Positions 7,264-32,481 of a DNA stretch of 64,000 nt are shown here, piece by piece. Each line of letters opens with the position of its first letter. The first letter of the stretch is position 1. The translations under genes and the position numbers were made by a program. The notes under the pieces are model-generated. The model was not told the DNA's origin. It worked only from the letters and a program-made list of their open reading frames with translations, and ran no database searches. The stretch is from Marsupella aquatica (Eukaryota > Plantae > Marchantiophyta): assembly GCA_973895155.1 (NCBI GenBank), contig OZ316891.1, positions 11,592,771 through 11,656,770 of the forward strand. Direction: 5' to 3'.

Positions 7264-7566
7264 TGTTGAGCATAGATGATATTCACAATGGTAAACCCAT
7301 GACACATTCAGTGCACAAGTAGTCGACACAAAAGATACTAGGTTCACCTTCTCAAGCCTACGTCTACAGGAACACACAAGAGAACTTTATTGAACCCCTA
7401 AGCCTGTTGGCCATACCAAATTCTCCAACAGTGGAAGCTCTCTTTATCTTTCAAGTGGCTTCATAACAATGAGACTTAGTTCCACTTATCCAAGCACACA
7501 CCGCTTAGCATATAGTGTGCAACTTACTTAAACCACGCATTTAGGTATAAGGGGCTCCACGTAACA
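7264..7566 (-). mobile_element. Degenerate solo LTR of the same Copia lineage as the elements at 9433 and 20800
   Basis: Begins TGTTGAGCATAGATGA and shares AGTCGACACA, GGTTCACCT, CTACGTC, GGAACACACAAGAG, ATAACAATGAG and CCAAGCACAC blocks with those LTRs; no matching TSD found, so the right end is approximate. Confidence 0.7.
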
Positions 7567-9432: not shown

Positions 9433-9776
9433 TGTTGAGTACAGACGACATTCGTAACAACAAGCCCATGAACCATCCAATGCACAAGAGTCGACACAGA
9501 GAAATATGTGGTTCACCTCCACATGAGGCTACGTCCACGGGAACACACAAGAGCTTTACTGCACTCTAGGCCGACCGGCCATACCAAGCATCCACAGCAC
9601 AAGCTCTCCCTATCTCTCAACTAGCTCCGTAACAATGAGCCTAAGTTCCACCAGGGTCTTGCATCAGCCCTGGCTTAATACACAATAGCACTACCGCTAA
9701 CTTTAGCTAAGTCCTAACCCGAGTTAGCTTAACTATAGTTAGCTCATGAGTCACAAGACTAGAGCAATATCTAACA
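9433..9776 (-). repeat. 3' LTR of outer Copia
   Basis: TGTTGAG...CTAACA, adjacent to PPT; direct repeat of 32138-32481. Confidence 0.95.
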
Positions 9777-12137
9777 AACTCCCCCTTGACTCTTGTCTTG
9801 GGGACTGGACTAAATGTTACCATATGGAATCCTCAGCGGGAAGTTCTAGACAATCACCAAACCAGGTCTCCCCCTAAAAACCACAAGGGTTAACTTAGAA
9901 GGGTTAACTTAGAAGGGTTAACTAGAACTAAGCCGTAGCCAAATAGGAATGAGTAATCCATATACAAATAGTCACACATTGCTAAATAACTCTACTTGCA
10001 CTACAGCTGCAAAACCTGCAAAGTAGCACGGTGTCTTGAGAAACTCTCCAAAATAATCACTTTGGTAAAAACATCAGCAGGATTGAACTTTCCATCAATC
10101 TTGACTAGCTCAAAAGTTTTATCAGACAATGCTTGCCTGATAAAATGGTACCTGATATCAATGTGCTTCACCCTGCTATCCATCACCTGGTTACAACCAA
10201 TTGAAGAGCACTCTGACTATCATAGTTAGAGTTAGTTTGCCATGCTCTAAATCCATCTTCGCGATCAACTTATCCAACCAAATTGCTTCCTTTGCTGCTT
10301 CTGCTGCTGCAACATACTCTGCTTCTGTAGTTGACTGAAATATACACTTCTACAAGGTAGATTTTCAACTGATACATCCTCCTTCAAGAGTAAATACAAA
10401 CCTAGTTGTAGAACTTCTTGTATCCAGACAGTCTTCATAGTCAGAATCTACATAGCCAACTAACGTTCTACCTGGTCTTGCATCAAATAGTAATCCATAG
10501 TCCTGTGTTCCCTTCAGATACCTGAGAATCCACTTCACAGCTTCCCAATGTAACTTCCCTGGATTTGACATGAATCTGCTAATCTTGCCCATCGCTAGGG
10601 CCAAGTCAGGCCTAGTACAAGTCATCAAATACATCAGACTACCTACTGCTGTCGTCTGTTATCAAACAGTAAACACCTATATTTTCCTTGTTTCACACCA
10701 AATACCGTTTTAATCGTATCACGAGGACGTGGAGGGACGCTATTTGGACATCCTCACACCGGAAAGGAGTAGATTCGTTTCCGCTCCCAGAAATGCATTT
10801 TTGATCAAGTCTACCGACTATTTTTCCGTCCTCACTTTTGATCAAGTCCCATGGACTACAGTCTCTCCCTTCCTCTTGGTCTCCAAAGAAGTGCTGTCAC
10901 CACTCCCCTAGCTCACAGGGCCGACCAAACCTTGCAAACTTCTCTTAAAAATCCGCTTGGGGGATTCTGTCACAAAAGCATACCAATACGGCTACAGGAA
11001 GGACACAACTATGAAGGAAAAATAAATCATAACACACAACAAAAATCGAAGAGTCATACTGAATCCATAGCTCTTGGTGAACAACGTAATACATCGTATG
11101 AGCAACCCGGCCTCCTCTCGTCTATTCAACTCCTGCCTCACTAGGACGATGCGCACTCCTCACCTCCCTACTCCAGATGATTCCTCCTCTATGTCGCAAG
11201 CTAACACTCCAAATTCACTCTAGATTGAGTCCCCCCCTCCTCTGCCCTTACCAGAGGTTGCTATTAAGTACTGAAAATCAAAATATCCAAGCACCCAAGG
11301 GCAAAGGGCCACCACCCCTTCTCGGGCGACGCCACTAATTCTAACACCTCGAACCTAGAACATGCGGCACACACATGTTTTAAAATACTATTCCTTATTG
11401 GACACCAATGGTGCCTTCATTGGCGTCTATCAACGACTAACTATTCCCTACCCTACTCTTCTGACTGATCACTACCTTCTTCCCCGGAATGGCCACTGAC
11501 ATCCTCACTATCCGACTGAATTGATGCCACCTTGGTCACCCCCGTATACGTGCAGTTGAAAACTCAGGCCTATCCCTCATCCACCTCTTTTAGGCTCGTC
11601 CAACCTTAAGAGTGCTCCCATAATCCTTCCCGACAACCACAAGGCTCGAACAGCCCCCCAACTTTAGCTCGGTATAGCCAAGGTTCACCCAACAGTCCAT
11701 GTACCATACTCGGTCACTCACTCAGGTACCCCGAGGTTGTTGCCCATAATTCCTAACTCCCTTCTCTTCTTCCCAAAATTCAGTAGCGCTAAAAAGGGGA
11801 GAGTCTTGTTTTAGAGAACTCATGCCCAAGTGGGAATGGAGAATGAGGAATAGTAAGAGAAGCGGAGGGTTTAAGTAGGCTTACAAGAGTGTGACCCTTT
11901 GGTCATTTCCCCTTCCAAGTCAAACCCCCTTCCAATCCTTCTTGCTCATATCCCTCCAAGTGTAGCAACTATCATGACCACCAACTACTCCCCCATGAAG
12001 TGTCACATTTTTCAGAGCATCAACTACTCCTATGACAAAGTGTTACGTTTTTCAGAGCATCAATTACTCCCTTAAAACGTGCCCAGTACCCACCCCGGTT
12101 ATTTTTCTTTCTAATTCTTTGTATCTATAGGGAGATA

Positions 12138-15100
12138 TATTAGAAAAGGTTTAATTGGTAGGCCACCGTCCAAAGTGGTAGACCACCGTCCTTAGTTGTA
12201 GGCCACCGTCCTAAGTGGTAGGCCACCGTCCTTAGTTGTGGGCCACCATCCTAAATTAGTGACTTAAATTAGACCATGAGGTGAACTATATTATAGGCAC
12301 ATGTGAAGGAATGTGTAGCATGAGAGAATACATAATATTCTCGTTTGACTTGACTTTGCATCCAAAGGATGCCACTCCATGTATAAAACCCCTCACTACT
12401 CAATGACATACACACCACATTTCCATATTCTTGGGCTCATGGATTTCTAACATGGTATCAGAGCCTTGTTGCGTTACTTCTGAATTGTGGGACTTCATAT
12501 TTCTTGTGAGGAGAGGAGAGTTGGTCTAGAGAGAGGATTCCCCCTCTAGAACTACTTGAATCAAATTTGAAGAAATAAGAATTGGACTCAATTCCCTACC
12601 AATTGATGAGAAAAGTTTTTCAAGTAGGTACATCGGGCAGCAAGACAGATTTTTTTTGTTGGGGGGGAGCAGTTGAGGCCAAATCTAAGCACGATTAGAT
12701 GGCATTTCAGAAGGAGCAAAGTTTGTCAAATTCACGTTTTGGGAGAGAGGACGCTTGATCTCAAATTTTGTTTTTGGCATTGTGAAGAATGTGACGACGC
12801 AGATGCAATGGAAAGCATTCCGAGTAGGTCATCTGTGGTGAGCAACAATAGAAGTGTTCTATTGTGAATGCAGTGCTTCTTGTAGTGGTCAAGAAGATTT
12901 TTTGCGGTGGCAAGAAGATTATTGGATAGTGATCCAGTCAAAGGCATTGGTCCTTTTCTTTTGAGTAGCGGCTCAACATGACGTCAAACATGAAGATCCC
13001 AAAGTTTGATGGCACATATTTCCAAGTGTGGAAAAGAAAATTGACTTTGAGTTTCAAAGATGAGAAGCTGATGGGAATTGTTGATGGCACTAGCCCGAAG
13101 CCAACAATAACTCCAACGTACACCCCAATAAAAGATGAATTGGAAGAGTGGGATCACAAAGACAACAAGGCACTTCGAATTTTGACACAAGGCATGGAGA
13201 ATTTATAAGCACATCATATCAGTAGTGCCAAGACTGTTGCGAAAGCATGGTCAACACTTCTCAACATGTTTGAAGCAAGTGATGCCATAACCAAGATGTA
13301 TCTTCATGACAAGTTGGCCACTCTCAAGATGAAGGAAGGAGAAAGCGTCATAAAGCATGTACATGCTTTTAAGAGGAATTTTGGAGCAACTTAATTAATG
13401 CAATGGGAGCACCAGTGTCAGATGAGGATGCACGATTGGCACTCATGAGGAGCATGCCTCAAAGTTGGAGGGGGGAAATTATTCCTCTAAGGAGGGATAC
13501 AACTCTTACTCTTCCGTCCTTGATTGCATATCTATTGCAAGAGGAAACGATGCAAAAAACAGAGGACTTGGCAGGGTTGACAACAACACTTTACATTGAC
13601 TTAAGGCTAGGGTCGAAATCTACCATCTCACAAGGTAGTAATTTTGGGAAGGCTAGCACCTCCCAAAAACCATGGAAGGAGAAAGCTTCCAAGATGAAAT
13701 ATCACTTTTGTAAACGGAAAGGACATTTTATTCGCGACTGCAAAGCAAGGATAGCCAAGGAGGGAAATGATGCCAAGAAGATTCAAGCGAACTCAGTCAT
13801 ACATAAGTTGTATGTGGCATCAATTGGGAATTTCGATGAAGGAGATTCAAGTTGGTATGTGGACACAACTGCATGCAACCCAACATATGGCGGATCATCG
13901 AGAAAACTTTGTGGAATACAAAGCTTGGGATCATGCCCAAGTAGTGTATTTGGGAGATGAGTCGACCTTGCAGATTGCTGGAGTGGGAAGTGTTCCCATT
14001 AAACTCCATGATGGTTCAGTGAGGATGGTGGAAAAGGTGCTTCGTGTACCTTGTCTCACAAAGAACCTATTTTCAGTGAACCAACTTGATGAAGAAGGAG
14101 GAGAGGCTATCATCAAGAAAGGTTCATGTACTTTGAAGAGTCCAACTGGCTCTATCATTAGTACTTTCTTTATTGTTAACAAGTTATATAAACTTGGTGT
14201 AACTGTAAGCCTCCACAGTGCAAATATTGCTATCACAACAAGTGGGGCGATGTGGCATAAAAGGCTTGGCCACATCAATGAAGCTAGAATGCAACAACTG
14301 CAAAACCACAACATGGTGGAAGGTATTGGTAAATTTGATGGAGTTTCTTTGTCTAATTGCGGAGCCTGTGCAAAGGCAAAGTCTACAAAGTTGAAATATC
14401 CGAAGGGTGGAAGATCAAAGATAATTGAACTTCTTGCCTTAGTTCATTCAGATATTTGTGGCTCAGTTCGCACTGCCACTCATTCAGGCTATGTCTACTT
14501 TATCACATTCATTGATGATTTCTCGAGATATTGTACCATATATCTCTTGAGGCACAAGTCAGAAGCCTTTGAGAAATTCAAAGAGTATAAAGCTCTTGCA
14601 GAAACACAAACCGACAAAAAGGTTAAGGTGTTGCAGTCTGACAATGGAGGAGAGTACAAGTCGACAACCTTTGACCTATTTTGCAAGGAACATGGGATTG
14701 CAAGGCAATTTACAGTTGCAGAGACTCCTCAACAAAATGGAGTAGCTGAGAGAAAGAATAGAACACTAGTGGAGACAGTTCTATCCTTGTTGAATCATTC
14801 AGGTCTATCTCGATCCTATTGGGGGGAAGCTATTCATATAGCTAATTACCTTCAAAATCAAACACCCACAAAAGCACTAGATGCCGACAAGACACCATAT
14901 GAGCTTTGGTATGGGAGAAAACCAAACTTGTCACATCTCAGGGTTTTTGGATGTAGAGCACATCTTAACATCAACAAAAACCATCGAGGAAAGCTTGACA
15001 ATCATGCCGAAGATTGTATTTTTTTGGGATATCCAGAAGACTCCACATCAAGAGATGTCTATAGGGTTCAACGAACAACCGATCGCAAGGTGATTGTGGC

Positions 15101-17447
15101 AAGAGATGTTCGATTTAAAGAAGACCAGCCCGGTGGAAAAGGCCCAGTTACTTCAGAGTTGGATGATCCGATGCTATTTGAACTTCCAATAGCACTAGCA
15201 CCAACACCAACTCCAGTGGGAGCACCAGCACTAGCACCAGTGGGAGCACCGGCTTTAGCTCAAGTCGGAGCTAATGCACCTGATGTTAGAGAAGAGGCTA
15301 CTAAAATTTCAGGCACATCTACTTCAAGAGGACCACAACCAAGTAGTCCACTACCACGATCCAGGTCCACAGAATCATTTGCAACATATTTTGATGAATT
15401 TGAAGGTTCGATAGAAGATGATGCCTCTACTCACGTTGAATTCTCAGAACCTGAATTTGGAAGGGGAAAGAGGAAGAAGATACCAACGAGGAGATATGGT
15501 TTTGACTCTGATTCAGCCATTGTGGCCTTAGTGATTGAATCTGGTCCAAGAATGGTGGAACCTACTTCTTTGAAGGAGGCACTTACAAGACCAGATGCAG
15601 AGGCAATGGAGGAAAGCCATTAATGATGAGTTAGACTCATTGAAGAAAAACAACACATGGACCATAGTCAAGCTTCCTCAAAATTGAAAGGTGATGGCTG
15701 CAAGTGGGTTTTCAAGTTGAAGTACAACCCGAATGGAAGCATTGCAAGATACAAAGCTAGACTTGTAGCCAAAGGCTATTCTCAAGTCTATGGGGTTGAT
15801 TACTTGGATATTTTTTCACCAGTAGTGAAAATCATATCTATAAGGCTCATTCTATCCTTGGTGGCCTTTTATGACCTTGAGGCCATCCTTTTAGATGTGA
15901 AGACATCATTCCTGAATGGTATACTCACGAAACCAATCTACATGGAGTTGCCTGAAGGATTAGAGTAGTTGGAGAAAATTCTTGACCCTGAAATGGTATG
16001 TCTCCTATTGAGGGCATTATATGGCCTCAAGCAATCCTCTAGGTTATGGTATAAGAGGATTGACACTTTCTTGTTAAACATTGGCTTTAGAAAGTGCGTA
16101 GCTGACTCAAATGTGTACTATTATGAGTCAGGAGGAAACTTTGTGATATTAGCTCTATATGTTGATGATTGCATACTTGCAAGCAATGACACCAACATAT
16201 TAGCTAAAGTCAAAATGACACTCATGAAGGAATTCGAGATGAGTGACTTAGGCAATATACATAATTGCCTTGGTATGGAAATCTCCCACAACAGAGAATA
16301 GGGTTGGCTCAAGATGTCTCAAGAGAGATACATCTTGGACAAATTAAGCACTTTCAACATGGAGAATTGCAAGGCAGTGCATACTCCAGTTGAGTTGGGC
16401 TTAAAGCTAAGCAAGGAGGATAGCCCACAAACTGAAGATGAAAAGTTACAGATGGAGACTGTACCATACCAGAATGCAGTTGGAAGCCTCATGTGGGCTA
16501 TGATCTGCACAAGGCCTGACTTATCCTATGTAGTTGGATCAGTGGCACAATTCATGTCCAATCCAGGTCCAAAGCATTGGATGACTGTGAAGCGAATTTT
16601 TCGGTACTTGAAGGGCACATCAAGTATGGGTTTGGTGTATAAAAGATCAGAATCTTTTATTCCCTTACATGGATATACTGATGCTGATTGGGGAGGAGAT
16701 ATTGACACAAGAAGATCAACCTCTGGTTATTGTTTCATGCTCTCAGGTGCAGTAGTGAGTTGGGCAAGCAAAAAGCAAAAATCTGTAGCCTTGTCTAGCA
16801 CCAAAGCAGAGTACATGGCCTTATCAAAGGCACGCACTGAGATAGTATGGTTGAAAAGACTTCTTGGAGACTTGCATCATCAGCAAGCAAGAGCCGTTAT
16901 TCATTGTGATAATCAAAGTGCTCTTAGCTTACTTGAAGCGTCTCGGCTTCATGATAGGAGCAAGCACATTGATATTCAATATCACTTTAGTAGAGAACTA
17001 GTTGATAGTGGTGAAATAGAAGTAATCTATTGTCCCACTGAGGAAATGGCAGCGGACATTCTCACCAAAGGACTTCCAAAAGACAAACACATTTATTTGA
17101 GAAAAATGCTAGGGCTTTATTAGAGTTCTAATTTAGTCACTAAAGTGGGAGTATTAGAAAAGGTTCAATTGGTAGGCCACCGTCCAAAGTGGTAGGCCAC
17201 CGTCCTAAGTGGTAGGCCACCGTCCTTAGTTGTGGGCCACCGTCCTAAATTAGTGACTTAAATTAGACCATGAGGTGAACTATGTTATAGGCACATGTGA
17301 GGGAATGTGTAACATGAGAGAATACACAAGATTCTCATTTGACTTGACCTGGTATCCAAGGGGATGCCACTCCATGTATAAAACCTCTCACTACTCAATG
17401 ACATACACACCGCATTTCTATATTCTTGGGCTCATGGATTTCTAACA
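12138..17447 (+). mobile_element. Ty1/Copia LTR retrotransposon of a different family, full length but frameshifted and with stops
   Basis: LTRs 12138-12452 and 17152-17447; PBS TGGTATCAGAGC at 12453; purine tract AAAGTGGGAG before the 3' LTR; TSD AGATA/AGATG; gag (UBN2-like, zinc knuckle), integrase (WHKRLGH..C..C, SDNGGEY, PQQNGVAERKNRTL), RT (LYVDD), RNaseH (ADWGGD, ADILTK). Confidence 0.95.
12978..17123 (+). pseudogene. Disrupted gag-pol of the plus-strand Copia
   Basis: ORF pieces 12978-13208, 13403-13960, 13767-15623, 15657-15968, 15969-16301 and 16314-17123, separated by stops and frameshifts. Confidence 0.9.
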
Positions 17448-18760
17448 AGATGTGTTGGCTCGTCCTCCCTTCCCTTCTTTTAAAACAAATGCCTTGGGCT
17501 TGGGCCCAGCCCTAGCCTCCCAAAAGAAAAAATGACTTAGTCAGGAAGTGCCCCTGACTGATGCCCATCCGGGAGTCCACAAGAAAACTAATTTTAGTCT
17601 CCTCTAAAAACGTGCCCAGCCCCATAGGATTGGGGTTTTAATTTTTCTTTTATTTTCCCTCCTTCCCCTTCCTTGGCCTGTTCCTAGAATCCGTCTAATG
17701 CTCTCCCCAAAGGCATGAGGCCCTATGGGGATCCTCCTCCTGCTCCTTCTTGCTGCCCCCAACTTTACCTTGGGCTTGCCTCCCCATGGCACGAGGCCCT
17801 ATGGGAATCCTTCTTTGATTAGTTTTGTTATTAATGAGGTTTTAAACCCCCCTAAAGCCCCCAACTTTAAACTAAACTGGGCCCCCCACAAGGATCTCCA
17901 TACCCGGGGTCCCAAAAATTAATTTGTGGTACCCCTTTAAGATGCCCAATTTTATTCCCTCCCCCCGGGACGAAAAGCCAGGAAACCACGAACTTAGGAA
18001 AACACTAAAAAATAAAAATAAATTACTGTCCAAATCCAAGGGCTCCACCCTCTATGCACCATGACCTTATAATGGCATCAGTAACTTAGTTATGTTAAAG
18101 AAAAATATATAGTAACCATAGGGTATGCACATCTGGCTTATTTACAAAGAAAACCTCATTAAACAGCTAATGTTGGGCTTCGGCCTCGGTGACATTGTCA
18201 CAACTGCCTTCTCATAAGGAATCTTAGCCATCAGACCTTTCTCCACAGCATCTGTAGGAGAGAAAGCCGATGATAACTTGAAATGTGAAGCTAAAGGAAT
18301 ACTTATTGGCTTACAGTTTTCCATGTTGAATCGTGCAAGTACTTTCCCCGCATACTGGCCTTGACTCAAGCACAACTGTCCAGTATCAGAGTTCCTAAAA
18401 ATATCCATCCCTAAGATCCTCTTGGCCTTACCAAGATCCTTCATCCTGAATTCAACACTCAATTTTGCCTTGAGACTGTCAACCTCAAATTGATCTTTAG
18501 TCACAATCAGCATGTCATCCACATAGATCACGAGAATGATGAAACCAAACACATCATTCTTGACTGATTTCGTATACACACAAGGATCATACACCATCCT
18601 TGTAAAACCTTGAGCAAACATAAAATCATCAAACCGCTTGTTTCACTGTCTGGGAGATTGCTTCAATCCATACAAGGACTTGAGCAATCTGCAAACTAAA
18701 TTCTCTTGGCCTTTCTTTATAAAGCCTAGTGACTGTCTCATGAAGATCATCTCTTCCAAG

Positions 18761-20769
18761 TGTGACGGGGTCCCCATCTCGAAAAATCACCATTAGGTGT
18801 TATTGGCAAGATGCATGTAAATAAATAAGCCAATATACACAAGAGTTTTCCAATTTCTTAAAAGTTAATCATCCCGGTGTGTGTTCATGTCGCGCTGGAG
18901 GGCCGGAGCTATTTAAACCCGAGAGGAACTATTTTTTTAATTGACCCTTTGCTCTCTTGGGTCTTGTCGTTGTGGGAGAAGAAAATTAGGCATCTTAAGG
19001 GGATACCACCAATTAATATTTGGAGACCCCGGCAGTTTTTCTTGGCCCCGGTGTAATATGGCGGAGTCAGCTAGGGAGGAGGATCCCGCAAGCCGTGGAG
19101 CACCAGATGGAGTCAGTCGGGGAGGAGGAGCCCGCGAGCCGTAGGGCGGGCCGTAGGGCGCTAGGTGGAGGGCCCAAAGTAAGGCTGCGTGCCCGCAAGT
19201 TGGGAGGCAGCAGGCGCGAGACAGAGGGCCGCCCCGGGAGTAGCGAGCCCTGGGAGTAGCGAGCCCCGGCAGGAGAAGGCAAGCAGGAGTAAAAGCTCCC
19301 ACGAGTGGGGTAGTAGGCGCAAGGAGGAGGCCGTAAGCCGGGAGTAACTCACCCAAGTGCCGAAAGCAAATGCATTTTCTTTCCCACACCTCATTGCGGA
19401 AAGCTCTCGACATATCTCCCTGTTTTTTTTGAAGTATTCCCTTGGCGCTTGGCTTGGAGAGCTATGAAATTTGATTGAGATCTTGTGATGATAGCAACAG
19501 TGGCAGCATTGGGTGACTTTTGGGAATTGAGAGTGGTTCTTGATCGGGAGATGGGGAGCCTCTGGCCAGGCCCCGGGAAGGACTCCCCCGGCAAGGAGAA
19601 TAGTAGGTGTTACACCCACATCAGCGGAGAGTGCCGGCAGTGAGGATTCCTGGGGGTGGAGTCCCAGTTCCGTGAGTGAGTCGGGGGAAGACTAGTGAGG
19701 CGTACGGACGTTGGTCGTACGGATTTTGAATTATGCAACACCTTGGATGAGGGGAATCACGGGCTTGTTGGAAGGAGCTCAAGGAGCTAATTCTGGCAAG
19801 GTGTGGCACGCCCAGAACGGAGTCAGGATGAAGAAGTTATGAGCTCGGGCGTATTACGGATTCAAACATTCGTAACTTGGTCGTCCGGAGTCCGTTTACG
19901 GATTCGTGATCAGGAGGAGCAGAGTTATCTAGGGCCCCCCTCAGGGGAGTAGTTCAAAATGGTTGAGGGTTTTGACCTTGAGTGGCCCCCTCACTTCCCC
20001 GTGACTACCAAGTGCGATTGGCATCGTCGAAGGCACCGACGGTCCCATAGTTAGATTAGGGTGTTAGAAGCATGTGTGTGCCACATGTTTTAATTAGGTT
20101 AGGGATTCCTTGTGGAAGGGTTTTTTGCGGCGCCGCTAGGGTAGCCGCCATCGTTGACCCCGTAAGGGGTGCTTTGGTGTGTTTTTTCAGTATTTAGGGG
20201 GAGAGCCCCGGAGTAGTGGGGGGGAACTCAGTCTAGTGTTTGCTTAGGGAAGTTAGCTCATAGCCAGAAGAGGGAATCAAGCCAGAGTAGTGAGGTAGAG
20301 GTGTAGCACCTGCCCCAGTGAGGCAGTAGTTGGGCAGACGGCAGGAGGCCGGGTTGTCCTTGCAATGTGTTATGACGTTTTGCCAAAAGATATGGATTTG
20401 GTTTGATTCCTCAAGTTTTGGTGTGGCGTTATCTTTTCTGGTTCACGATTGTGTTCTTTCCCCAAGAAGTGTCTAAGGAATACTTGCATGGATTGGTCGA
20501 CCATATGAGTAGGGGGTGGTGACAGCACTCCACCAGCGACCAGTAGGAGTGTGTGTGTGGCGTAGTGCATGAGACTTGATCAAAAGTAGCGGGACTAGTC
20601 GGTAGACTTGATCAAAAACTACATTTCCGGGAGCGGAAATAAACATACTCATCCTACATGCAATAGAATCCTAATAGCGTCCCTCCACGTTCCTGTCATA
20701 CGATAACAAACAATTTTAGTAGGAGTAAATACGTATTTGTCGTGTAAATCATTTGATAAGCAGGTGACA
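18761..20769 (+). mobile_element. Large solo LTR (2009 bp), related to the 10650 solo LTR and in opposite orientation
   Basis: TGTGACG...GGTGACA termini; TSD CCAAG at 18756-18760 and 20770-20774; shares TTTCCGCTCCC.GAAATG...TTTTTGATCAAGTCTACCGACTA with 10778-10820 as reverse complement; AATAAA near the 3' end. Confidence 0.85.
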
Positions 20770-21058
20770 CCAAGTTGCCATAGAGAAAAGCAGTAACAAT
20801 GTTGAGCATAGACGACGATCGCAACGGCAAGCCCATGAACCATCCAACGCACAATAGTCGACACAAGAGATACGTGGTTCACCTCCTTGAGGCTACGTCC
20901 ACGGGAACACACAAGAGAGCTTTACTGAACTCTAAGCCCGTCGGCTATACCGAGTCTCCACAGTGTAAGCTCTCCCTATCTCTCAAGTGGCTCCATAACA
21001 ATGAGCCTTGGTTCTACCTCTCCAAGCACACATGCCTCTTATGATATAGTGTGCAACT

Positions 21059-21238
21059 TAGTTGTACCTAACCACATAGTTGTACCTAACCACATAGTTG
21101 TACCTAATCACGTAGTTGTACCTAACCACATAGTTGTACCTAATCACGTAGTTGTACCTAACCACATAGTTGTACCTAATCACGTAGTTGTACCTAACCA
21201 CGTAGTTGTACCAACCCACGTTGTTGTACCAACCACGT
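21059..21238. repeat. 18-bp tandem array (TAGTTGTACCTAAYCACR x ~10) in the LTR U3 region; second copy at 27178-27357
   Basis: Seen directly; gives the (V/I)VVPNH pseudo-ORFs; units are adjacent with no spacers. Confidence 0.95.
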
Positions 21239-21465
21239 CATACCTAACCTAGACGTAAGAGTAAATACCCAACAATCTTCCCCTTGACTCTGGTCTAGGG
21301 GAGAGTAATACTGCCAATGTATATGATCCCTCAGCGGGAAGTTCTGGACAGAAACCAAACCGGTTTCCCTCTCTAACTAGAGCAAACCAGAACTAAGCCG
21401 TAGCCTAATACATAGGAATGAGGAAGAGCATATATCAGTAATTACAATGAATGTTTAAGAAAACT

Positions 21466-24400
21466 CTACTTGTGATGCAATTGCAAAACCTGCAATACGT
21501 CACGGTGTCTAGAGAAACTCTCCAAAGGAATCACTTTGGTAAATGCGTCAGCCGGGTTGAGTTTACCATCAATCTTGACTAGCTCAAACAAATTATCAGA
21601 CACAGCCTGCCTGATAAAATGGTACCTGACGTCAATGTGCTTCACTCTGCTGTCCATCACCTGGTTCACAGCAAGGTGGAGCGCACTTTGACTATCACAA
21701 TGGAGCTTCACATTCCCCTGTGGCAATCCCATTTCAGTGATAAGTCTATCCAACCAAATCGCTTCCTTTGCTGCTTCCGCAGCTGCAACATACTCCGCTT
21801 CTGTAGTAGACTGAGCAATACACTTCTGCAAAGTAGACCTCCAACTTATGCATCCACCGCCAAGTGTGAACACGTATCCTGTTGTTGATCTCCTTCGGTC
21901 CAAATCTTGTCCATAGTCAGAATCTACATAGCCAATCAATGATCTAGCATTCTTTGCATTCGCATCAAATAAAAGACCATGATCCACGGTACCCTTCAAG
22001 TACCTGATAATCCACTTCACTGCTTCCCAGTGTACCTTCCCTGGATTCGACATGTACCTGCTCACCTTGCCCATAGCCATGGCAAGATCAGGTCTAGTGC
22101 AAGTCATCAAATACATGAGACTCCCCACTGCCTTGTCATATGGAACCTTTGACATCAACCCCTTCTCTGTGTCATCCGTAGGACAGAACGCTGATGATAA
22201 CTTGAAGTGTGGAGCCAACGGGGTACTTACTGGCTTGCTATTCTCCATGTTGAACCTTGCAATTACCTTCCTCGCATAACTGCTCTGCGTCAACCATAGC
22301 TTGCCAGCCTCCAAGTCCCTACTGATCTCCATACCCAAAATCCTCTTAGCTGGCCCTAAGTCCTTCATCTTAAACTCTGCACTAAGCAGTGCCTTGAGCT
22401 TAACAATCTCAGACCTATCCTTGGCTGCAATTAGCATGTCATCCACATAAAGTACTAAAACAATGAACCCAAAGACAACATTCTTCACCGGTTTCAAATA
22501 CACACAAGGGTCAAATACACTTCTGTGAAAACCTTGTGACCGAATCCAATCGTCAAACCGCTTGTTCCACTGTCTTGGTGACTGCTTCAACCCATACAAG
22601 GATTTCAGCAATCTGCAAACCAATTCCTCCTGTCCTCTCTTCACAAAACCTAGCGGTTGTCTCATGAAGATCACCTCTTCCAATGTGCCATAGAGGAAAG
22701 CTGTGACAACATCCATCTGATCTAGGAGCAGACCAAACATTACAACAAGTACACACAATAGTCGTATTGTAGAGTACTTAGCAACTGGTGAGAAGACCTC
22801 ATTGTAATCCACACCTTTCTCTTGTGTGAATCCCTTTGCTACCAATCTAGCCTTGTAGACCTTCGATCCACCTCCTATGGAATTATCCTTCAGCTTGTAA
22901 ATCCACTTGTTGTCCACCACTTGCTGACCCTTAGGCAGCTTAACAAGCTCCCAAGTTTTGTTGTCCTTTAGTGACTGCATCTCCGTTTGCATTGCTGCAG
23001 TCCACTTCTGCTTCTCCTTTGAAGCACTTGCCTCATGAAATGAAGAAGGTTCTCCTTCTTCCAAAATTAACGCATCACCCTCATCATCAGCTGTAAAATC
23101 ATCCTCTTGCAGTTGAGATGAATCAACCCACTGTCCATACCTTGATGGAGCGCGTACAGTGCGACCAGATGTTCTTCTAGCCGATGACTCCGGTTGATCT
23201 GCGTGTGCTGGTACAATTTGAAGCTCAACAGCATCCACTTGCTGCTCACCAGCATCAACAAACTCCTCTGGTTCCTCTGGCACAGGAACCAGCTCCATAA
23301 TTGGAGCAACTCCTTCTCTCCGGTCATGCACCTCATAACCAATCTCCCCCTCAACGAGATCCGGGATAGGAGATTTTCCTTTGTCAGTACGGGAGACCTG
23401 AGTATTCTCCCCCTCCTTCAATAATCTGGATTCATTGAAGGAAACATCCCTACTGACAACGAGCTTACAGGCAATAGGATCCCATAGCCTATAGGCTTTC
23501 ACACCACTCTGGTACCCAAGAAAAACACATTTCCTGGAGGTAGGATCCAACTTGGTCCTATTCTGCTTTGGTGTGAGAGCATATGCATCACTTCCAAAAA
23601 TTACCAAGCCATGATAGTCTGCTTGCCGCTTATAGCGCATCTCAAACGGTGTTTTGAAATTGATAGCACTAGAAGGAGAAAGATTTACCAAATAAGCTGC
23701 GGTATTGACAGCTTCTGCCCAAAATTCTTGTGGTAAACCTGATTGGCTTAACATACTCCGTGACCGCTCCAACAGTGTCCGATTGAGCCTCTCAGCGACA
23801 CCATTCTGCTGCGGAGTATAAACTGTGGTGAGATGGCGAGTTATCCCCTGTTCTGAACAGTACTCTTCAAATTCCATTGAAGTGTACTCCCCGCCGTTGT
23901 CTGACCTCAGACTCTTCACCCTTGTATCCAAACACTTGATCGTGTTTCCAGTCTGATTCTCCACCTGGGCCTTCCACTTCTTAAAAATGGACAAGACATC
24001 AGACTTATGCGTCATGAAATAAATCCACACAAATCTTGAGTAATCATCAATAAATGATACATAGTACAACTTTCCAGAGTGTAAGGGAGTCGGGGATGGA
24101 CCCCACACGTCACTATGTATGTACTCAAGAACCGCTTTGGAATGATGAGTTCCAACACCAAAAGCACGACGATGCTGCTTTCCAAGAATGCAATGCTCAC
24201 AAAACTCTAATTTACAAGATTGCAAATCAGAAATGAGTCCATTCTTCCGTAAGATAGCCAAACCCTTCTCACTCATGTGGCCTAGCCACAGTTGAGTCAT
24301 CTCCTCGTGAGACTTGGTTACATTGGCCTCTCCACATACAGTATTGCCCTGTAACACATACAAATTCTTTTGTCTACTCCCCTTCAAAATCACTGTCTCT

Positions 24401-24729
24401 CCCGACCTGACTTGAAGTTCACCATCAATAACGCTCCATTGATGACCATTTGAATCCAACACACCGAGTGAAATCAGATTCTTACGCATGCCAGGTACAT
24501 ACCTGACTCCGGACACTGTGCGCACAGCGCCATCAAACATTTGAATCTTCACAGACCCAATTCCCTCAATTTGACAGGAGTGATCATTTCCCATCAGAAC
24601 TGAACCGTTTGAAATAGAGTAAGAACTGAAAAACTCACGAATGTAACAAATATGAAAAGAGCAAGCACAATCAAGAATCCACACATCATCTGCTCTCCTA
24701 GATGACGTGCACAGGGCATACCCCCGGCT
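21466..24729 (-). CDS. Pol (protease-integrase-RT-RNaseH) of the young Copia, in frame with gag behind a single UGA
   Basis: Open frame of >1070 codons: WILDCAC (PR), SDNGGEY and PQQNGVAERLNRT (INT), LYVDDMLI (RT), YVDSD and NPADAFTK (RNaseH). Confidence 0.95.
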   Translation of the reverse strand, partial: SRGYALCTSSRRADDVWILDCACSFHICYIREFFSSYSISNGSVLMGNDHSCQIEGIGSVKIQMFDGAVRTVSGVRYVPGMRKNLISLGVLDSNGHQWSVIDGELQVRSGETVILKGSRQKNLYVLQGNTVCGEANVTKSHEEMTQLWLGHMSEKGLAILRKNGLISDLQSCKLEFCEHCILGKQHRRAFGVGTHHSKAVLEYIHSDVWGPSPTPLHSGKLYYVSFIDDYSRFVWIYFMTHKSDVLSIFKKWKAQVENQTGNTIKCLDTRVKSLRSDNGGEYTSMEFEEYCSEQGITRHLTTVYTPQQNGVAERLNRTLLERSRSMLSQSGLPQEFWAEAVNTAAYLVNLSPSSAINFKTPFEMRYKRQADYHGLVIFGSDAYALTPKQNRTKLDPTSRKCVFLGYQSGVKAYRLWDPIACKLVVSRDVSFNESRLLKEGENTQVSRTDKGKSPIPDLVEGEIGYEVHDRREGVAPIMELVPVPEEPEEFVDAGEQQVDAVELQIVPAHADQPESSARRTSGRTVRAPSRYGQWVDSSQLQEDDFTADDEGDALILEEGEPSSFHEASASKEKQKWTAAMQTEMQSLKDNKTWELVKLPKGQQVVDNKWIYKLKDNSIGGGSKVYKARLVAKGFTQEKGVDYNEVFSPVAKYSTIRLLCVLVVMFGLLLDQMDVVTAFLYGTLEEVIFMRQPLGFVKRGQEELVCRLLKSLYGLKQSPRQWNKRFDDWIRSQGFHRSVFDPCVYLKPVKNVVFGFIVLVLYVDDMLIAAKDRSEIVKLKALLSAEFKMKDLGPAKRILGMEISRDLEAGKLWLTQSSYARKVIARFNMENSKPVSTPLAPHFKLSSAFCPTDDTEKGLMSKVPYDKAVGSLMYLMTCTRPDLAMAMGKVSRYMSNPGKVHWEAVKWIIRYLKGTVDHGLLFDANAKNARSLIGYVDSDYGQDLDRRRSTTGYVFTLGGGCISWRSTLQKCIAQSTTEAEYVAAAEAAKEAIWLDRLITEMGLPQGNVKLHCDSQSALHLAVNQVMDSRVKHIDVRYHFIRQAVSDNLFELVKIDGKLNPADAFTKVIPLESFSRHRDVLQVLQLHHK

Positions 24730-25764
24730 TCATAAAACATACTCATCATTGAGTAAATCAGCTTCTCCATCAGCCCTAGCCACATTTGCCGATGAAGTTT
24801 CCGCTGCCTTTCCCTTACAGTCTCGCTTGAAGTGTCCAACTTGGTTGCACTTCCAACATGTCACCTGCCTCCTCTGAGGGGATTTACCCTTGGACTTAGA
24901 TCTGGATTTAGATCTAAACTGGGTTCTACGGTCCCCAGTTGGTCGCTGCATACTCCTCCCACGGTTAACATTGAGGGCAGCACCAGATGATGAAGGCTGT
25001 GACGTGATGTGCATCTTCTGCTGAAGATCATCACTAAGCAGAGAACTTACCACGTCATTGTATGAAATGGTATCCCTATCACGATGCAACAACACTCGTG
25101 ATAGGGACTGGTAAGATGGAGGCAATGAACTAAGAAGCTGCAGAGCCTTCGTCTCATCATTCAAAGTCTCCCCAAGGTTTTCCAAGTCAACGACCATGTC
25201 GTTGAAAGCATCCACATGGTCTTGCAACTTCGTACCAGATTCCTTCATCCTGAAACTCATCAGTTTGTAGGAAGTGTAGAGCCGGTTCGACAACTCCTTG
25301 CGGTGATACTTGCTCTGCAATTCCGCAAATAAGGACATGCAATCCTTATGTGCACCCAACTGCTTGATGATGGGAGGCATGAGATAGAGTGTAACACACC
25401 ACACTCCCTGCTCCTGCATGCGGTCCCATTGTTTCTCATCAACATCGTCTTCACGAGGGCTCAGCAGTTGGCCCATCCCTGACGCATAAAGCACTCCCTT
25501 CACCTGCTTCTCCCATAGCAAGTAGTCAGAGCGCCCATCATACTTTGTCACTTCATACTTGGGTCCCCCAAGCTTGAAAGTCCCCATCTTCTTCTTTACC
25601 GTGAGCTCCGGTAGTAGTACTGCTTCCTCCACCACACGCCGCACCGGTGATGGTATCGGTGTCACGTGCTCTTCCTCCTGCTCCTCTCTCTGCCCCTGAA
25701 ACCTCCGCGGTGACCCTCGTGCTTCAAGTTCCACGTCTTCGAAAAACTCCTCCGAATCACTCAT
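24730..25764 (-). CDS. Gag of the young Copia (344 aa)
   Basis: KYDGRSDYLLWEKQVK, UBN2-type LLSSLPPSY, CCHC knuckle CWKCNQVGHFKRDC; ends NDEYVL-TGA. Confidence 0.93.
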   Translation of the reverse strand: MSDSEEFFEDVELEARGSPRRFQGQREEQEEEHVTPIPSPVRRVVEEAVLLPELTVKKKMGTFKLGGPKYEVTKYDGRSDYLLWEKQVKGVLYASGMGQLLSPREDDVDEKQWDRMQEQGVWCVTLYLMPPIIKQLGAHKDCMSLFAELQSKYHRKELSNRLYTSYKLMSFRMKESGTKLQDHVDAFNDMVVDLENLGETLNDETKALQLLSSLPPSYQSLSRVLLHRDRDTISYNDVVSSLLSDDLQQKMHITSQPSSSGAALNVNRGRSMQRPTGDRRTQFRSKSRSKSKGKSPQRRQVTCWKCNQVGHFKRDCKGKAAETSSANVARADGEADLLNDEYVL

Positions 25765-28146
25765 ATGAGAAAGTCACAAAAAATGTTGTTTTTCACAACT
25801 TCTCAAAAAACTCGAAACTCAACACCGCCGCGTAGCCCACAAAGCTAGGAGTCCAATACTGAAAACCGAAATCAAAATCGAAATTTGACGGAAAAGTTAT
25901 TCAAATTTCGGTCGAGGTGGGTAAAACCTTGGGAAACTCCCCCGTTTTGACCACCTCAGGGAATAACCGAAATACCAAGTACAACCCGTTGTCGGAATTG
26001 CGATGTGATTGGTGCGCTGCATTGCCAACTTCAATGGCTACGACCTCGCCGAAAAATAACCAAAAAAGTTATCGTTCGGCGGATGAAATCTTTGTCGGAC
26101 GGTCAAAAAATAGCTCTCTGGTTTTTTGGAATATTCTATGACCCTTGTACAGGCCCTGTGGGAATTTTGGAAGAACAATCGAGGGGCTGACATGTGTCCT
26201 CGAACCCCCAAAACCCCCTACCACCCTTCGTCGTCGAAATCTGGTCGCGTGCGCAGAAAATACACATGGCAGAATGTACCCCTCGACACCAAACGCAAGA
26301 TATCTCACTCGGGTTTTGACTAAATCAAGATCCGATTTCAGATTTGGAAACTAGACTCCGAGGCGATGAAGATCGATATAAGAAGCACCCAAAACAAGGA
26401 AAGAACGAGGGAGAAAAAAATTGGTAAAGATGACAGATTTCTCTCAATTGCCATAGCCAATTTCGAATCAGTTTTTCAAAGAGAAAAAAATGGTACCTTG
26501 TCAACAACGAATGTTGATCAATTGCACTTGGTGCCGTCACCAAGTCCAACAAGGTAATTGATTTTGCTTAGCCTTCCTCTTTGCATCAAAGAGCCAATCC
26601 CGGACTCAAAAACAATCGTCTTGCCTCAATCTCTCCGTTGAGTCAAAACACTTGACGCTTCTCCCTCCGAGTCGATTGCCAACTTTCTTCACAAAATCCA
26701 GAACGACGAAAACTTAGATCTCTCTGCACCACGAGCTCCGTTCAACGATTTCTTCACACCGTTAGAAAGCTCTTGCCCTGATCTATCCGTTGAGCCCATA
26801 AACTCCAAGTTCCATGCGATGGAACTCTGGAAAATCCACCAACACTCAACGCTGGAAAAACCGTCATGAAATCCCGTCACGAACACACGTCACCTCCCAA
26901 GCATGCTCTGATACCAATTGTTGAGCATAGACGACGATCGCAACGGCAAGCCCATGAACCATCCAACGCACAATAGTCGACACAAGAGATACGTGGTTCA
27001 CCTCCTTGAGGCTACGTCCACGGGAACACACAAGAGAGCTTTACTGAACTCTAAGCCCGTCGGCTATACCGAGTCTCCACAGTGTAAGCTCTCCCTATCT
27101 CTCAAGTGGCTCCATAACAATGAGCCTTGGTTCTACCTCTCCAAGCACACATGCCTCTTATGATATAGTGTGCAACTTAGTTGTACCTAACCACATAGTT
27201 GTACCTAACCACATAGTTGTACCTAATCACGTAGTTGTACCTAACCACATAGTTGTACCTAATCACGTAGTTGTACCTAACCACATAGTTGTACCTAATC
27301 ACGTAGTTGTACCTAACCACGTAGTTGTACCAACCCACGTTGTTGTACCAACCACGTCATACCTAACCTAGACGTAAGAGTAAATACCCAACAAACAACA
27401 TCCATTTGATCCATCACCAGACCAAAAAAACACAACAAGCTGACACAAGATCCAAATTGTGGAATACTTAGCCATCGGTGAAAAGACCCCATTATAATCC
27501 ACTCCTTTCTTCTGAGTGAATTCCTTGGCAACAAGCCTTGCCTTGTAGATCTTCTCTCCACCCTTTGAAAGACTATCCTTCAACTTGTAAATCCACTTGC
27601 TGACCTCTTGGAAGCTCCACCAGCTCCCATGTCTTGTTGTCACTCAAAGATTGCAACTCCCTCTACATTGTTGCATTCCACTCATGCTTATGCTCTGAAG
27701 CACAAGCCTCACTATACGAAGAAGACTCTCCTTCTTCTAAGATCAGAGCCATGTCATCATCATCAGGTGCAATGTCAATATCATCTAGCTTAGATGAGTC
27801 TGCCCATTGACCATACCTAGTAGGAGCTCTAGTAGAATGATTGGAAGTTCTTCTAGCAGATGACTCAAGCTGATCTGTTGCTACTGTTGGCTGAATTTGA
27901 GATACCCCAACAACAATCTGCTCCTCTTGTTCCATCACAGGAACCAGCTCCAAGCCCGAAGCTTCTTCATCTCTCTTGTCATGAATAGCATCATGACTAA
28001 TCTCCCCCTCAACCCGGTCCGGATGAGAGATTTCTCCTTGTCAATATGGGAGTCTTGAGAACTCTCCCCCTCCTTTGATGATTTGGATTTATTAAAGAAC
28101 ACATCTCTACTAACAATTAGTTTACAGGTTACTGGATCCCATAACC

Positions 28147-28446
28147 AGACTCAACCGAACACTATTGGACCGCTCGAGGAGTATGTTGAGTCAATCATGC
28201 TTACCACATGAGTTTTGGGCTGAAGCTGTCAACACTGCAGCTTATTTGGTAAATTTTTCTCCATCTCTAGTTCTATTGGAATCAAGACGCCATTTGAAAT
28301 GAGGTACGGGCGTCCAGCAGATTACTCACATCTGAGGATTTTTAGATGTGATGCTTATGTACTTACACCTTCCTAGCTTTGATCCAAGCTGGAGTCCAAG
28401 TTGAAGAAGTGCATTTTCCTTGGCTATCAGAAAGGTGTGAAGGGTT
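28147..28446 (+). other. ~300-bp inversion inside the outer Copia integrase
   Basis: RLNRTLLDRSRSMLSQ...FWAEAVNTAAYLVN...FLGYQKGVKG reads on +, while the flanks QNGVSE and LWDP read on -. Confidence 0.9.
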
Positions 28447-31400
28447 CAGAAACACCATTCTGCTGAGGAGTATAACTTGTTGTGAGATGGCGAGTAATCC
28501 CCTCCTCCTTACAATACGTTCCAAATTCCCCAGAACTATATTCACCGCCGTTATCCGATCAAAGATATCTCACCTTATTACCAGTCTGATTCTCTACTTG
28601 GGCTTTCCACTCCTTAAAAGCGGCAAAAACATCAGATTTATTGTGTAAAAAATATATCCACACATACCTTGAGTAATCATCTATGAATATGACATAGTAT
28701 AACCGTCCAGAATGTGAGGGAGTAGGGGCTGGACCCCACACATCACTATGTACATACTCAAGTACCTTATTGTTGGTGTGAATTCCAACTCCAAAGGGTT
28801 TCATGTGCTGCTTCCCAAACACACAATGTTCACAGAATTCCAACTTACAAGATTGCAAATTAGAAAGTAATCCTTTTTTCTGAAGAATAGCCAAACCTTT
28901 TTCACTCATGTGGCCCAAACGGAAGTGCCACAGCCGGACCGTCTCCTCATGAGATAAGGTTACATTGGCTTCATCACAAACTACACTACCCTCCAAAACG
29001 TATAGATTGTTATATCTCTTTCCCTTCAATACAATTTTAGTACCAGTTGAAACCTGAAGGACACCATTAGCAGAACTCCATTGATGGTCATTTGCCTCTA
29101 AAATTCCAAGTGAAATGAGATTTTTCATCATGCTGGGAATATGTCTCACATCCCTCAACGTTCTCACAACACCATCAAACATCTTAAATCTAACAGATCC
29201 AAGTCCAACTACTTGACATGGGATTCCATTTCCCATCAACACTGACCCATTGGAAACCGTGTAAGAACTGAAAAAATCTCTCCTAGAGCAAATATGAAAG
29301 GTACATGCACTATCTAGAATCCAGTCATCACTACCTGGATTTGACACTACGTTGAGAGCAAAACCTTGGCATCACAATACATAGTCATCATCATCGAGTA
29401 AATCTACCTCATGCAAGCTCGATGCCGTGTTAGCTGATGTAGTAGGGGCTTTTACTCAACAATCCCTTTTCATGTGGCCAGGCTTGCCACAATTCCAACA
29501 TGCAAGAGGCTTCCTCTCTTGCGATTTCCCTCTGGATTTAGATCTCCCCTGTGATGTAGATATAAACCTGTTCTGCCTATTTGAGCGCTACGTTGCTCTC
29601 CCACGGTTCACGTTCAGCGTAGTGCCAAAAGAAGATGTTGTCTGTGATAGACCCAGCTTCTTCTAAGTATCATCAGACAGTAAAGAGCTCACCACCTCAT
29701 TATACAAAATGGACTTAAGATCTCTGTACAAGAGCACCTGTTTCAAGCCTTGATATGACGACGGTAAGGAGCTTAGCAAAAGCAAGGCCTTATTCTCATC
29801 TTTAACTCCTTTTCCCAGGTTTGACAGATCCACCGCTAGACTGTCAAACTCATCCAGGTGATCCTGCATCTTGCTCCCTTCCTTGAGCCTGAGGCTCATC
29901 AAGAGAGACTTCTTGTACAGCCGGTCTAACGCATCTTCCTGGTAGTACTTCTCTCTAAGGGCCTTAAACTGTGACGCGCAATCCGCATAATTATCCAACT
30001 TCTTGATGATGTGCGACTTGAGATAAAGCATCACTGCATTGACAACAATCACCTGCTCCTGTCTCCACTGTTTCTCTGAGATCTCCTCTTCTCCATCATA
30101 CTGCTCTCGCGAAGAGAGCAAATGAGCTAAGCCCATGGCCCGTAGAACACCCTTCACTTGCTTCTCCCACATCAAGTAATCAGTACGACCATTGTACTTC
30201 TCCACCTCAAACTTCACTCCTCCAAATCTGGCCATCTCCCTCTTCTTCCCCACTACTGACAGCTCTGATAGTAGTATAGTTTCCTCCATTGCACGCCGCA
30301 CCAATGATCGTACCGGTGTCACTAGTTCTTCCTCAAATGATAGCAGCTCCTCCTTAGACTCTCCATCTGACCGTCGCGATCCTGAAGCTCCACCGACGCC
30401 AATTCTTCCGGTATCCTTCGAGTCACTCATATGAAACAATCACAAAAAAACATCTTTTTTTGAAACTTCTCATAAAACTCAAACTCAACACCGCCACGTA
30501 GCCCATGAAGCTAGGAGTCCAATACTGAAAGCCAAAATCAAAATCAAAATTTGACGGAAAAGTTATTCAAATTTTGGTCGGGATGGGTAAAACCTTGGGA
30601 AACTCCCCCGTTTTGACCACCTCGGAGAATAACCAAAATACCTAGTACAACTTGTCGTCAGAATCGCGATGTGATTGGTGCGCCGCGTTGCTAACTCCAG
30701 TGGCAATGTCCTCGCCAAAAAGAACCAAAAAAATTACCGTTCGGCGGACATAATCTTTGTCGGACAACCAAAAAACAGCTCTCTATTTTTTGGAAATATT
30801 CCCACACAGTCCGACAGGTCTCACAGGGGGCCGTTCCCCCTATCGAAGCGCTTAAAACAGAGGGCGACAGGTCCTAGTACCAAGTTAAACAAGAGGGAAG
30901 AAAAAAATGCTATTAAAAGCGCCCTAAAGGGGGTGCTAAAGCCCCTCAACTAAATATACGCCTTAAAAATGCACATCCGCGTCGCGCATACATGAGGCGG
31001 GCTAGGCAGGGTATAGAAAGGGCGTATGGCCGAGGGCGTACCCAAGCGGATGCGTATGCAGCCGCGTACGTACTGTGGTCGCGAGCCAGGAGGGAGGAAA
31101 TTGCGAGGAGCCGGCCGGAGGGAGCCCCCGGCTTGCAACGGCAGCACGAGGGGTGCGAGGGGTGGCGAGGCGCTCGAAAGGCGCTGGGCCGGCAGCCGGG
31201 CCCGGGGAGGGCACAAAGGGGCGACGGGGAGGCGCCCGAGTTTTGAATGAGGGAGCGGGGCAGGGCTGGCTCGCGGAATAAGGGGCAGCAGCAGCCGGCC
31301 GGCGTTGCGTAGGGTGCCGCGCGCCTGCTAATACGGGGTGCGGGGGGGTGCGAATACACAGGGTCACGGGGGCCGGGAGGGAGTATGAGGTGTGTATACA

Positions 31401-32137
31401 CACACCAAACACCCCCTTACAACGAAAAATGACCCTTATGAAAAAACTTGAGTTCTCACCTCAAAAAACCCCTATTTACACTAAGGAAAAGATGAGTGTC
31501 GACGGTCCAAAGTTGTTGAATTTCACCGGCACAGTCTGCCGCTTCAGCTGAGTAAACAATTTCTGCCGCGTCGCCTTCACTCCGTGTCAAGTGCCAATTC
31601 TGGGCTCAAAACGACCGCCTCATCGTGATCAATCCGTTGAGCCGTAGCACTTCGCGTTTCTTCCACCGAGTCGGACGTCACGAAGAGAAACCCGGTTCAG
31701 ATGGGAACAAGCTCCATAGCTTGTGAAAAAACCTGAACGCCTCCGTCACTCGTCACATTGCACTCGGTAACAACTCGACAGCAACTCAGCTACCAAAACG
31801 ACCAGCTCGCTTCAACCTTCAACTTGAGCTATAATGTGCGACCCCTCCCACACCGCACAGCTCACACCGTTGAAAAATGCAAACTCTGGTCTCTCCCCCG
31901 AAAAGCCTGCGAACACGAATAAAACCTAAACGACGCAAATTTCAATTCCTCCGCACTACGGATACTGATCAGCGAGTTCTAACCACCGTTAGAACGCCCT
32001 CTCACTAACCTATCTGCACAGCCACACACATTCGAGTTTCATGCGACGAAACTCCGAATGTGCCACCGACAATGAACGCTGGAAAAAACCCATCACGAAA
32101 AAACCTCGTCATCTCCCATGCATGCTCTGATACCACT

Positions 32138-32481
32138 TGTTGAGCATAGACGACATTCGTAACAACAAGCCCATGAACCATCCAACGCACAAGAGTCGAC
32201 ACAGAGAGATACGTGGTTCACCTCCACATGAGGCTACGTCCACAGGAACACACAAGAGCTTTACTGCACTCTAGGCCGATCGGCCATACCAAGCATCCAC
32301 AGCACAAGCTCTCCCTATCTCTCAACTAGCTCCGTAACCATGAGCCTAAGTTCCACCAGGGTCTGGCATCAGCCCTGGCTTAATACACAATAGCACTACC
32401 GCTAACATTAGCTAAGTCATAACCCAAGTTAGCCTAATTGTGGTTAGCTCATGAGTCACAAGACTAGAGCAATATCTAACA
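32138..32481 (-). repeat. 5' LTR of outer Copia
   Basis: Adjacent to PBS TGGTATCAGAGCA; direct repeat of 9433-9776. Confidence 0.95.

Follow-up and report, generated by a model that had tools for sequence, protein, structure and literature searches.

A branch of Copia retrotransposons with liverworts as its named hosts has kept a stop codon at one position between gag and pol as an ancient, clade-wide trait, and ribosomal readthrough of this UGA is probably how its Gag-Pol fusion is made. The 64-kb window (the whole stretch of DNA analyzed here) contains a young element and an older relative that both carry the stop (Table 1).

Table 1. Features of the two related Copia elements in the window
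Feature	Position	Strand	Remarks
Young Ty1/copia element	20800..27393	-	6.6 kb, bounded by LTRs and TSD
5' LTR, young element	26919..27393	-	475 bp, TG...CA, with 18-bp tandem array; no differences from 3' LTR
3' LTR, young element	20800..21274	-	475 bp, identical to 5' LTR
TSD TTGTT, young element	27394-27398 and 20795-20799		5 bp
Primer-binding site, young element	26905..26916	-	TGGTATCAGAGC
Polypurine tract, young element	21276..21285	-	
gag ORF, young element	24733..25764	-	344 aa; C-terminal end DLLNDEYVL, same end motif in relatives; PF14223, PF00098
CCHC knuckle, young gag	near 24814-24861	-	
In-frame TGA, gag/pol boundary of young element	24730..24732	-	Conserved
SRGYAL, six codons 3' of TGA	24712..24729	-	Second Y/F-A-L motif; putative protease N-terminal cleavage site
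Candidate 11-bp hairpin	24681..24710	-	Begins 19 nt 3' of TGA
pol frame, young element	21466..24729	-	1087 codons: protease, integrase, RT, C-terminal RNase H region
Older related element	9433..32481	-	LTRs 32138-32481 and 9433-9776; TSD GGAGA
TGA at aligned codon, older element	29372..29374	-	

The young element has identical LTRs and the target site duplication TTGTT, and is therefore very young. It displays the TG...CA LTRs, 5-bp TSD, primer-binding site, polypurine tract, and domain order of a Ty1/copia LTR retrotransposon; its Pfam matches run PF14223, PF22936, PF00665, PF07727 (Gag, protease, integrase, RT), while the same Pfam scan of the element gave no match to an RNase H model. We take its primer-binding site, TGGTATCAGAGC, to be of the initiator tRNA-Met type, and suspect that its REXdb lineage is Tork; the single gag-pol ORF that prevails in named REXdb lineages such as Tork is, however, absent from it. 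The minus-strand frame from 25773 to 21466 comprises 1436 codons and just two stops, the TGA at 24730-24732 and the terminal TAG. The first in-frame AUG 3' of the TGA is codon +46, and the catalytic WILD motif lies earlier, at +17 to +20. About ten 18-bp units are arrayed in the young LTRs (27103-27389 and 20984-21270), an array absent from the older LTR. Near position 24285, three codons present in the older copy and in some contigs are missing from the young copy; they belong to the integrase N-terminal zinc-binding region and include its first His, and the young copy may have moved with help in trans.

The LTRs of the older element show 16 differences in 344 bp, and its RT is split by the young element and further insertions. 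Besides the aligned TGA it has four further stops within 658 codons, and by a simple ratio the chance of a decay stop hitting exactly the aligned codon is <1%. The preliminary description had quoted both junction sequences, and these are indeed present in the window; its statements that the young TGA is the only internal stop, that no AUG lies between it and the protease active site, and that the older copy has TGA at the same codon agree with the frame, the first AUG, and the alignment, respectively. The young (25815-26136) and older (30481-30801) elements share 84-88% identity in the leader just 5' of the gag AUG, above the identity of gag itself, and this leader is likely a packaging or expression signal.

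The insertions in the RT of the older element (9433-32481) form a nest that includes the young element and others, among them a plus-strand, frameshifted Copia of a different kind (LTRs near 12109-12452 and 17126-17447); stretches of the nest near 18764-20770 and 10649-12109 have inverted similarity to each other. Elsewhere in the window, an LTR-like remnant (7261-7529) is 74-81% similar to the LTRs of both elements, and tandem repeats occupy 49497-50188 and 63012-63755 (units of about 67-149 bp and about 333 bp). Host sequences include a minus-strand PPR frame of 915 codons (3314-6061) that ends in TGA, a minus-strand frame of 651 codons (53756-55711) that is charged, of low complexity, and without a Pfam match, and a plus-strand DnaJ plus RRM exon (59135-60019). 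A changed nuclear code is unlikely, given that the PPR frame terminates at TGA.

Three Gag searches yielded 193 distinct proteins, 59 of them close relatives (at least 38% identity over at least 100 residues) and 134 distant. Among the close relatives, 23 stop short of the knuckle and 36 reach it; of the latter, 30 terminate at the site, 6 are irregular (P0017, P0019, P0023, P0028, P0058, and P0157), and none is fused to a protease. The conservation proposed earlier from two copies thus extends across the lineage. P0019 corresponds to locus L002, where a TAG occurs earlier and the TGA is nonetheless present at the site. The 30 site-ending Gags end 35-60 residues past the start of the knuckle, with an acidic tail and almost always a final Leu (YAL in 9, YVL in 7), and have a median pairwise identity of 58%, as measured on 25 long ones. 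The distant proteins comprise 39 fused, 6 site-ending, 36 ending otherwise, and 53 without a knuckle. The Gag profile search had no length limit, unlike the long-protein search, whose nine matches are all fused at 26-33% identity and in which the absence of closer proteins is weak evidence. The viral and prokaryotic collections contained no useful relative, L003 being a knuckle-only match.

A quick tree of 77 rows, restricted to ending or fused proteins with at least 170 residues before the knuckle, places 29 ending rows in one branch (SH-aLRT 96) with a core of 26 rows (SH-aLRT 100) and no fused row inside; seven ending rows fall outside the branch. Its named hosts are Calypogeia fissa, Marchantia polymorpha ssp. 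ruderalis, and Riccia fluitans, most members being unnamed, and the Atlas matches of P0001 are Copia Gag clusters of Streptophyta only. Judged from these relatives, the host of the window is likely a liverwort. Several distant Gags (P0078/P0194/P0195, P0077/P0196, P0176, and P0144) also end at a matching place with an acidic-hydrophobic tail; the distant site-ending Gags come partly from Prunus, Cajanus, and Salvia records and sit on separate branches among fused forms. Known as proteins only, these Gags may derive from gag-stop families of independent origin, from spliced short forms, or from decay.

Four junctions are available as DNA, those of the young and older elements and of two metagenome loci (2 of 313 candidates), the other Gags being known as protein only. 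Every one of the four junctions has the sequence YTR-TGA-WGC-CRR, and the distance between the stop and the protease Trp is exactly 16 codons in each; the codons after the stop are AGC-CGG in the young and TGC-CAA in the older element, and AGC-CAG and AGC-CAA in the other two. Because gag pS among these loci is saturated (0.73-0.81) and just 20 of 111 invariant gag residues use an identical codon in all four, the shared TGA can be considered a modest argument for the importance of the codon as such.

Contigs of four sequencing runs cover the junction (389, 94, 175, and 49 contigs from organisms A, B, A, and A, one possibly the window's own). TAA at the stop accounts for 0.34, 0, 0.83, and 2.8% of the summed depth in the four runs, values that are shares of contig depth rather than copy number and that miss rare variants lost in contigs. 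CGA is found in one contig in each of the three organism-A runs, run X4 has one further contig with an Arg codon (seen by eye at a loose contig end), and no change of the third base is listed among the contigs of the four runs. In run X1, codon +2 shows 12% variation, in contrast to the low variation at the TGA. If the TGA were a neutral terminator, nothing would prevent its drift to TAA, yet the TAA share is low. The preliminary description had proposed weighing TGA against sense codons in other copies: in these contigs TGA prevails, but CGA or Arg codons occur in single contigs. It had also cautioned that CGA to TGA is a common mutation, a concern removed by the contig variants, the four DNA junctions, the tree, and the 30 site-ending Gags, which together refute a shared decay stop. 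There are four other stops in the older copy, but 30 relatives with a median pairwise identity of 58% end at the same residue, and the young copy has no other stop inside gag-pol, leaving a decay mutation shared by chance with a negligible probability.

Early pol in the four junctions has a pN of 0.18-0.29 versus a pS of 0.47-0.67. The comparison of selection called for earlier, carried out on the pol side, thus shows purifying selection, and this result and the 1087 open codons indicate that Pol is expressed from stop-bearing elements. Translation likely covers the codons directly after the stop as well, because Ala-Leu at +5/+6 is kept in all four junctions with Leu encoded by four different codons, i.e., it is conserved as protein. 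Fused P0062 has a single DYAL motif 10 residues before the protease Trp, while stop-bearing elements have a Y/F-A-L motif on both sides of the stop, the downstream copy at the distance from the protease Trp seen in P0062. The motif near the protease is presumably a cleavage site, and the pair is likely a duplicated Gag/protease cleavage site.

Exceptions came from the Pol side, where a search gave 20 matches: 16 begin downstream of the stop position, which is compatible with the stop without proving it, 1 is a fused Acer protein, and 3 belong to the liverwort branch and show no stop at the aligned position. With these three, the stop appears to be nearly, not strictly, fixed in the clade. P0217, which looks decayed, has Trp at the stop position and Cys at +1; P0218 is missing the stop together with the six codons after it (seven codons shorter), the shape expected from a putative deletion between the repeated motifs. 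These two are single-member clusters grouped together inside the clade. As fused forms they might serve as rare helpers from which Gag-only, stop-bearing copies borrow Pol, and the young copy did move recently despite its three missing integrase codons. This is nonetheless very unlikely, given that the Pol of stop-bearing copies is under purifying selection across saturated synonymous divergence with 1087 codons open, that both fused forms are single-member clusters, and that one of them looks decayed.

The third protein, P0210, has Asp at the aligned stop codon and forms a sister branch with P0231, both being Calypogeia fissa gene models with a common initial Met that lies 19 residues ahead of the protease Trp and 3 upstream of the stop position. 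They represent either an ancestral, fused arrangement or a Pol that begins at its own AUG. The latter would suit an independent production of Pol, whether through reinitiation at a non-AUG codon, internal entry, or a weak promoter in the junction, partly as in Tca2, whose junction contains a weak promoter (PMC2194720). We regard such a route as quite unlikely: the four junctions have no AUG before +46 and no common near-cognate start before the protease motif, the AUGA overlap does not match the pol frame and is gone in TTG-TGA copies (the older copy and a variant at 24733 in contigs), and the retention of an in-frame TGA would be left unexplained. An AUGA stop-restart was rejected, being in the wrong frame and not conserved, as was ribosome hopping between flanking Leu codons, which match in only one of the four junctions.

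The context UGA-AGC/UGC-CRR falls outside the plant-virus types CAA-UYA, UGA-CGG, and UAG-GGG-GGC (directly 3' of the stop), and the base after the UGA is A or U. The preliminary description was right that the context is not CARYYA; the undescribed signal it supposed is reduced to WGC-CRR, all that the junctions have in common, and a hairpin without statistical significance. The candidate 11-bp hairpin forms in the young copy and in L001, 19 nt 3' of the stop. Scored on four rows, with the structure taken from one of them, 82% of cells are paired with one compensatory pair, and 78 of 500 shuffles score as high; RNAalifold recovered the inner six pairs. Folding z-scores 3' of the stop in the four regions range from -1.4 to +1.6, none significant by nested folding. 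Between the young and older elements there is no local rise in synonymous conservation after the stop (0.55 vs 0.43-0.62 elsewhere in pol), and a long-range pairing scan gave two matches in the young and five in the older element, none at matching places. WGC-CRR and the hairpin 19 nt downstream are the candidates for a stimulating signal.

The main rival to readthrough is splicing: the AG two bases past the TGA, or another nearby acceptor, might allow a minor RNA that skips the stop and fuses pol to a more 5' portion of gag, comparable to Ogre or foamy viruses. TGAAG|C (phase 2) is found in three of the four junctions, phase-2 GT sites at -844 nt are common to all, and three have at -336 nt a strong-looking phase-0 donor matching the splice consensus G|GTRAGY. 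Yet that AG is absent from the older element, which reads TGA-TGC (with Cys at +1, as in P0217), no single-phase acceptor is common to all four, neither the young nor the older copy offers the phase-0 donor an acceptor of that phase within 60 nt, and the shared GTs fall in conserved Lys-Tyr and Val-Val codons. Splicing near the protease is the norm in Arabidopsis copias as reported in PMC5580714, but a stop inside an intron needs no TGA retention, and we consider splicing improbable here.

Readthrough of the UGA is the sole reading that accounts for a stop kept both in frame and as TGA, and with the fewest extra assumptions; no near-cognate start or AG after the stop is common to all four junctions. 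We therefore favor it as the probable mechanism. Most ribosomes would halt at the UGA and release Gag with its acidic Y-V/A-L tail, while a minority would insert a near-cognate residue, Trp, Cys, or Arg, given as plant UGA readers in PMC2194720. The latter ribosomes would continue through the six-codon linker, in which the second Y/F-A-L motif is the likely site of protease release. Gag excess would then be set by translation, not by splicing as in Arabidopsis copias, and the stop cassette would likely go back to an ancestral Gag/protease cleavage site that underwent a short duplication. Alteration of the UGA in RNA (A-to-I editing to a Trp codon) or its reading as selenocysteine would each demand UGA specifically, and P0217 does have Trp there; to our knowledge, however, neither process has been established for nuclear mRNA in land plants, and TGA terminates the host PPR frame of the window, making both exceedingly improbable. 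Taken as a whole, the proposal that an old liverwort Copia clade controls its Gag:Pol ratio through a cleavage-site duplication around a new UGA, read through by means of a signal (UGA-WGC-CRR, to which a downstream hairpin or a remote element may contribute) that differs from all three plant-virus types, is tentative, and we would put it at somewhat below an even chance.

The preliminary description held that plant Copias normally encode one gag-pol ORF. In a plant survey, the Copia lineages with a determined layout are indeed mainly single-ORF, with the exceptions of Bianca (spaced ORFs) and SIRE (mixed) (PMC6317226), but this background was incomplete with regard to Tca2 (PMC2194720) and the SIRE elements with a single stop. 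Tca2 (pCal), a Ty1/copia element of Candida albicans, has gag and pol in one frame with a single UGA between them; its bypass mechanism is described as unsettled, and its 300-nt junction gave no readthrough in S. cerevisiae (PMC2194720). Tca2 and the liverwort clade are both Copia with gag-UGA-pol kept in one frame among copies. Tca2, however, is fungal and has a purine-rich spacer and a predicted pseudoknot, while the liverwort junctions show a weak hairpin at +19 nt by nested folding only. Independent origin of the two layouts is likely because distant relatives of the liverwort clade are mostly fused (24-35% Gag identity, some auto-named TNT 1-94).

Among land-plant Copia elements, 22 SIRE elements (10%) have a single gag/pol stop (GAG:s:PROT-INT-RT-RH), and in the same survey single stops are common in some Gypsy groups (PMC6317226). 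The stop characterizes a minority of the mixed-layout SIRE lineage, in contrast to its near fixation in the liverwort clade, and SIRE elements average 9.9 kb with a 3' extra ORF in 74% (PMC6317226), whereas the young element is 6.6 kb without one. Tork, Ale, Ivana, and Angela are single-ORF polyprotein copias (PMC6317226), and Arabidopsis copias make extra Gag by EVD-type splicing (PMC5580714). Such single-ORF copias resemble the young element in Met-type primer-binding site, 5-bp TSD, and domain order, but they encode one polyprotein, with splicing for Gag in Arabidopsis, while in the liverwort clade a genomic stop codon ends Gag. Plant-virus readthrough types I-III (CAA-UYA, UGA-CGG, and UAG-GGG-GGC 3' of the stop; PMC2754532) and MuLV share with the clade an in-frame stop before the polymerase or protease region (PMC2754532, PMC8310308), and in the TMV context Trp is reported as the residue incorporated at UGA in planta (PMC2754532, PMC8310308); UGA-AGC/UGC-CRR is unlike the contexts of types I-III.

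We found no report of a gag-stop-pol copia in liverworts in the literature, although Gao et al. 2003, Havecker et al. 2004, and two supplements of PMC6317226 may already list such elements; the main text of that survey does not mention liverworts or Marchantia, and the portions of PMC12513842, PMC2829016, and PMC8310308 available to us describe no such liverwort layout. The gag-stop-pol layout itself is known, and what appears to be new is the liverwort-associated, clade-wide junction with its noncanonical context and a plausible origin by cleavage-site duplication.

How a Copia gag stop is bypassed has been a standing question since the Tca2 study, and plant copias have been thought to use one ORF plus splicing. 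Annotators of transposable elements will wrongly label such elements as broken or nonautonomous, and gene callers will list their Gags as host CCHC proteins, as suggested by the Marchantia, Riccia, and Calypogeia records. The stop kept across dozens of diverged families, including Marchantia members, provides many natural variants and a tractable host for defining the bypass signal. If true, duplication of the cleavage site and readthrough of the stop would constitute a clade-wide endogenous readthrough system in land plants, open to test in Marchantia.
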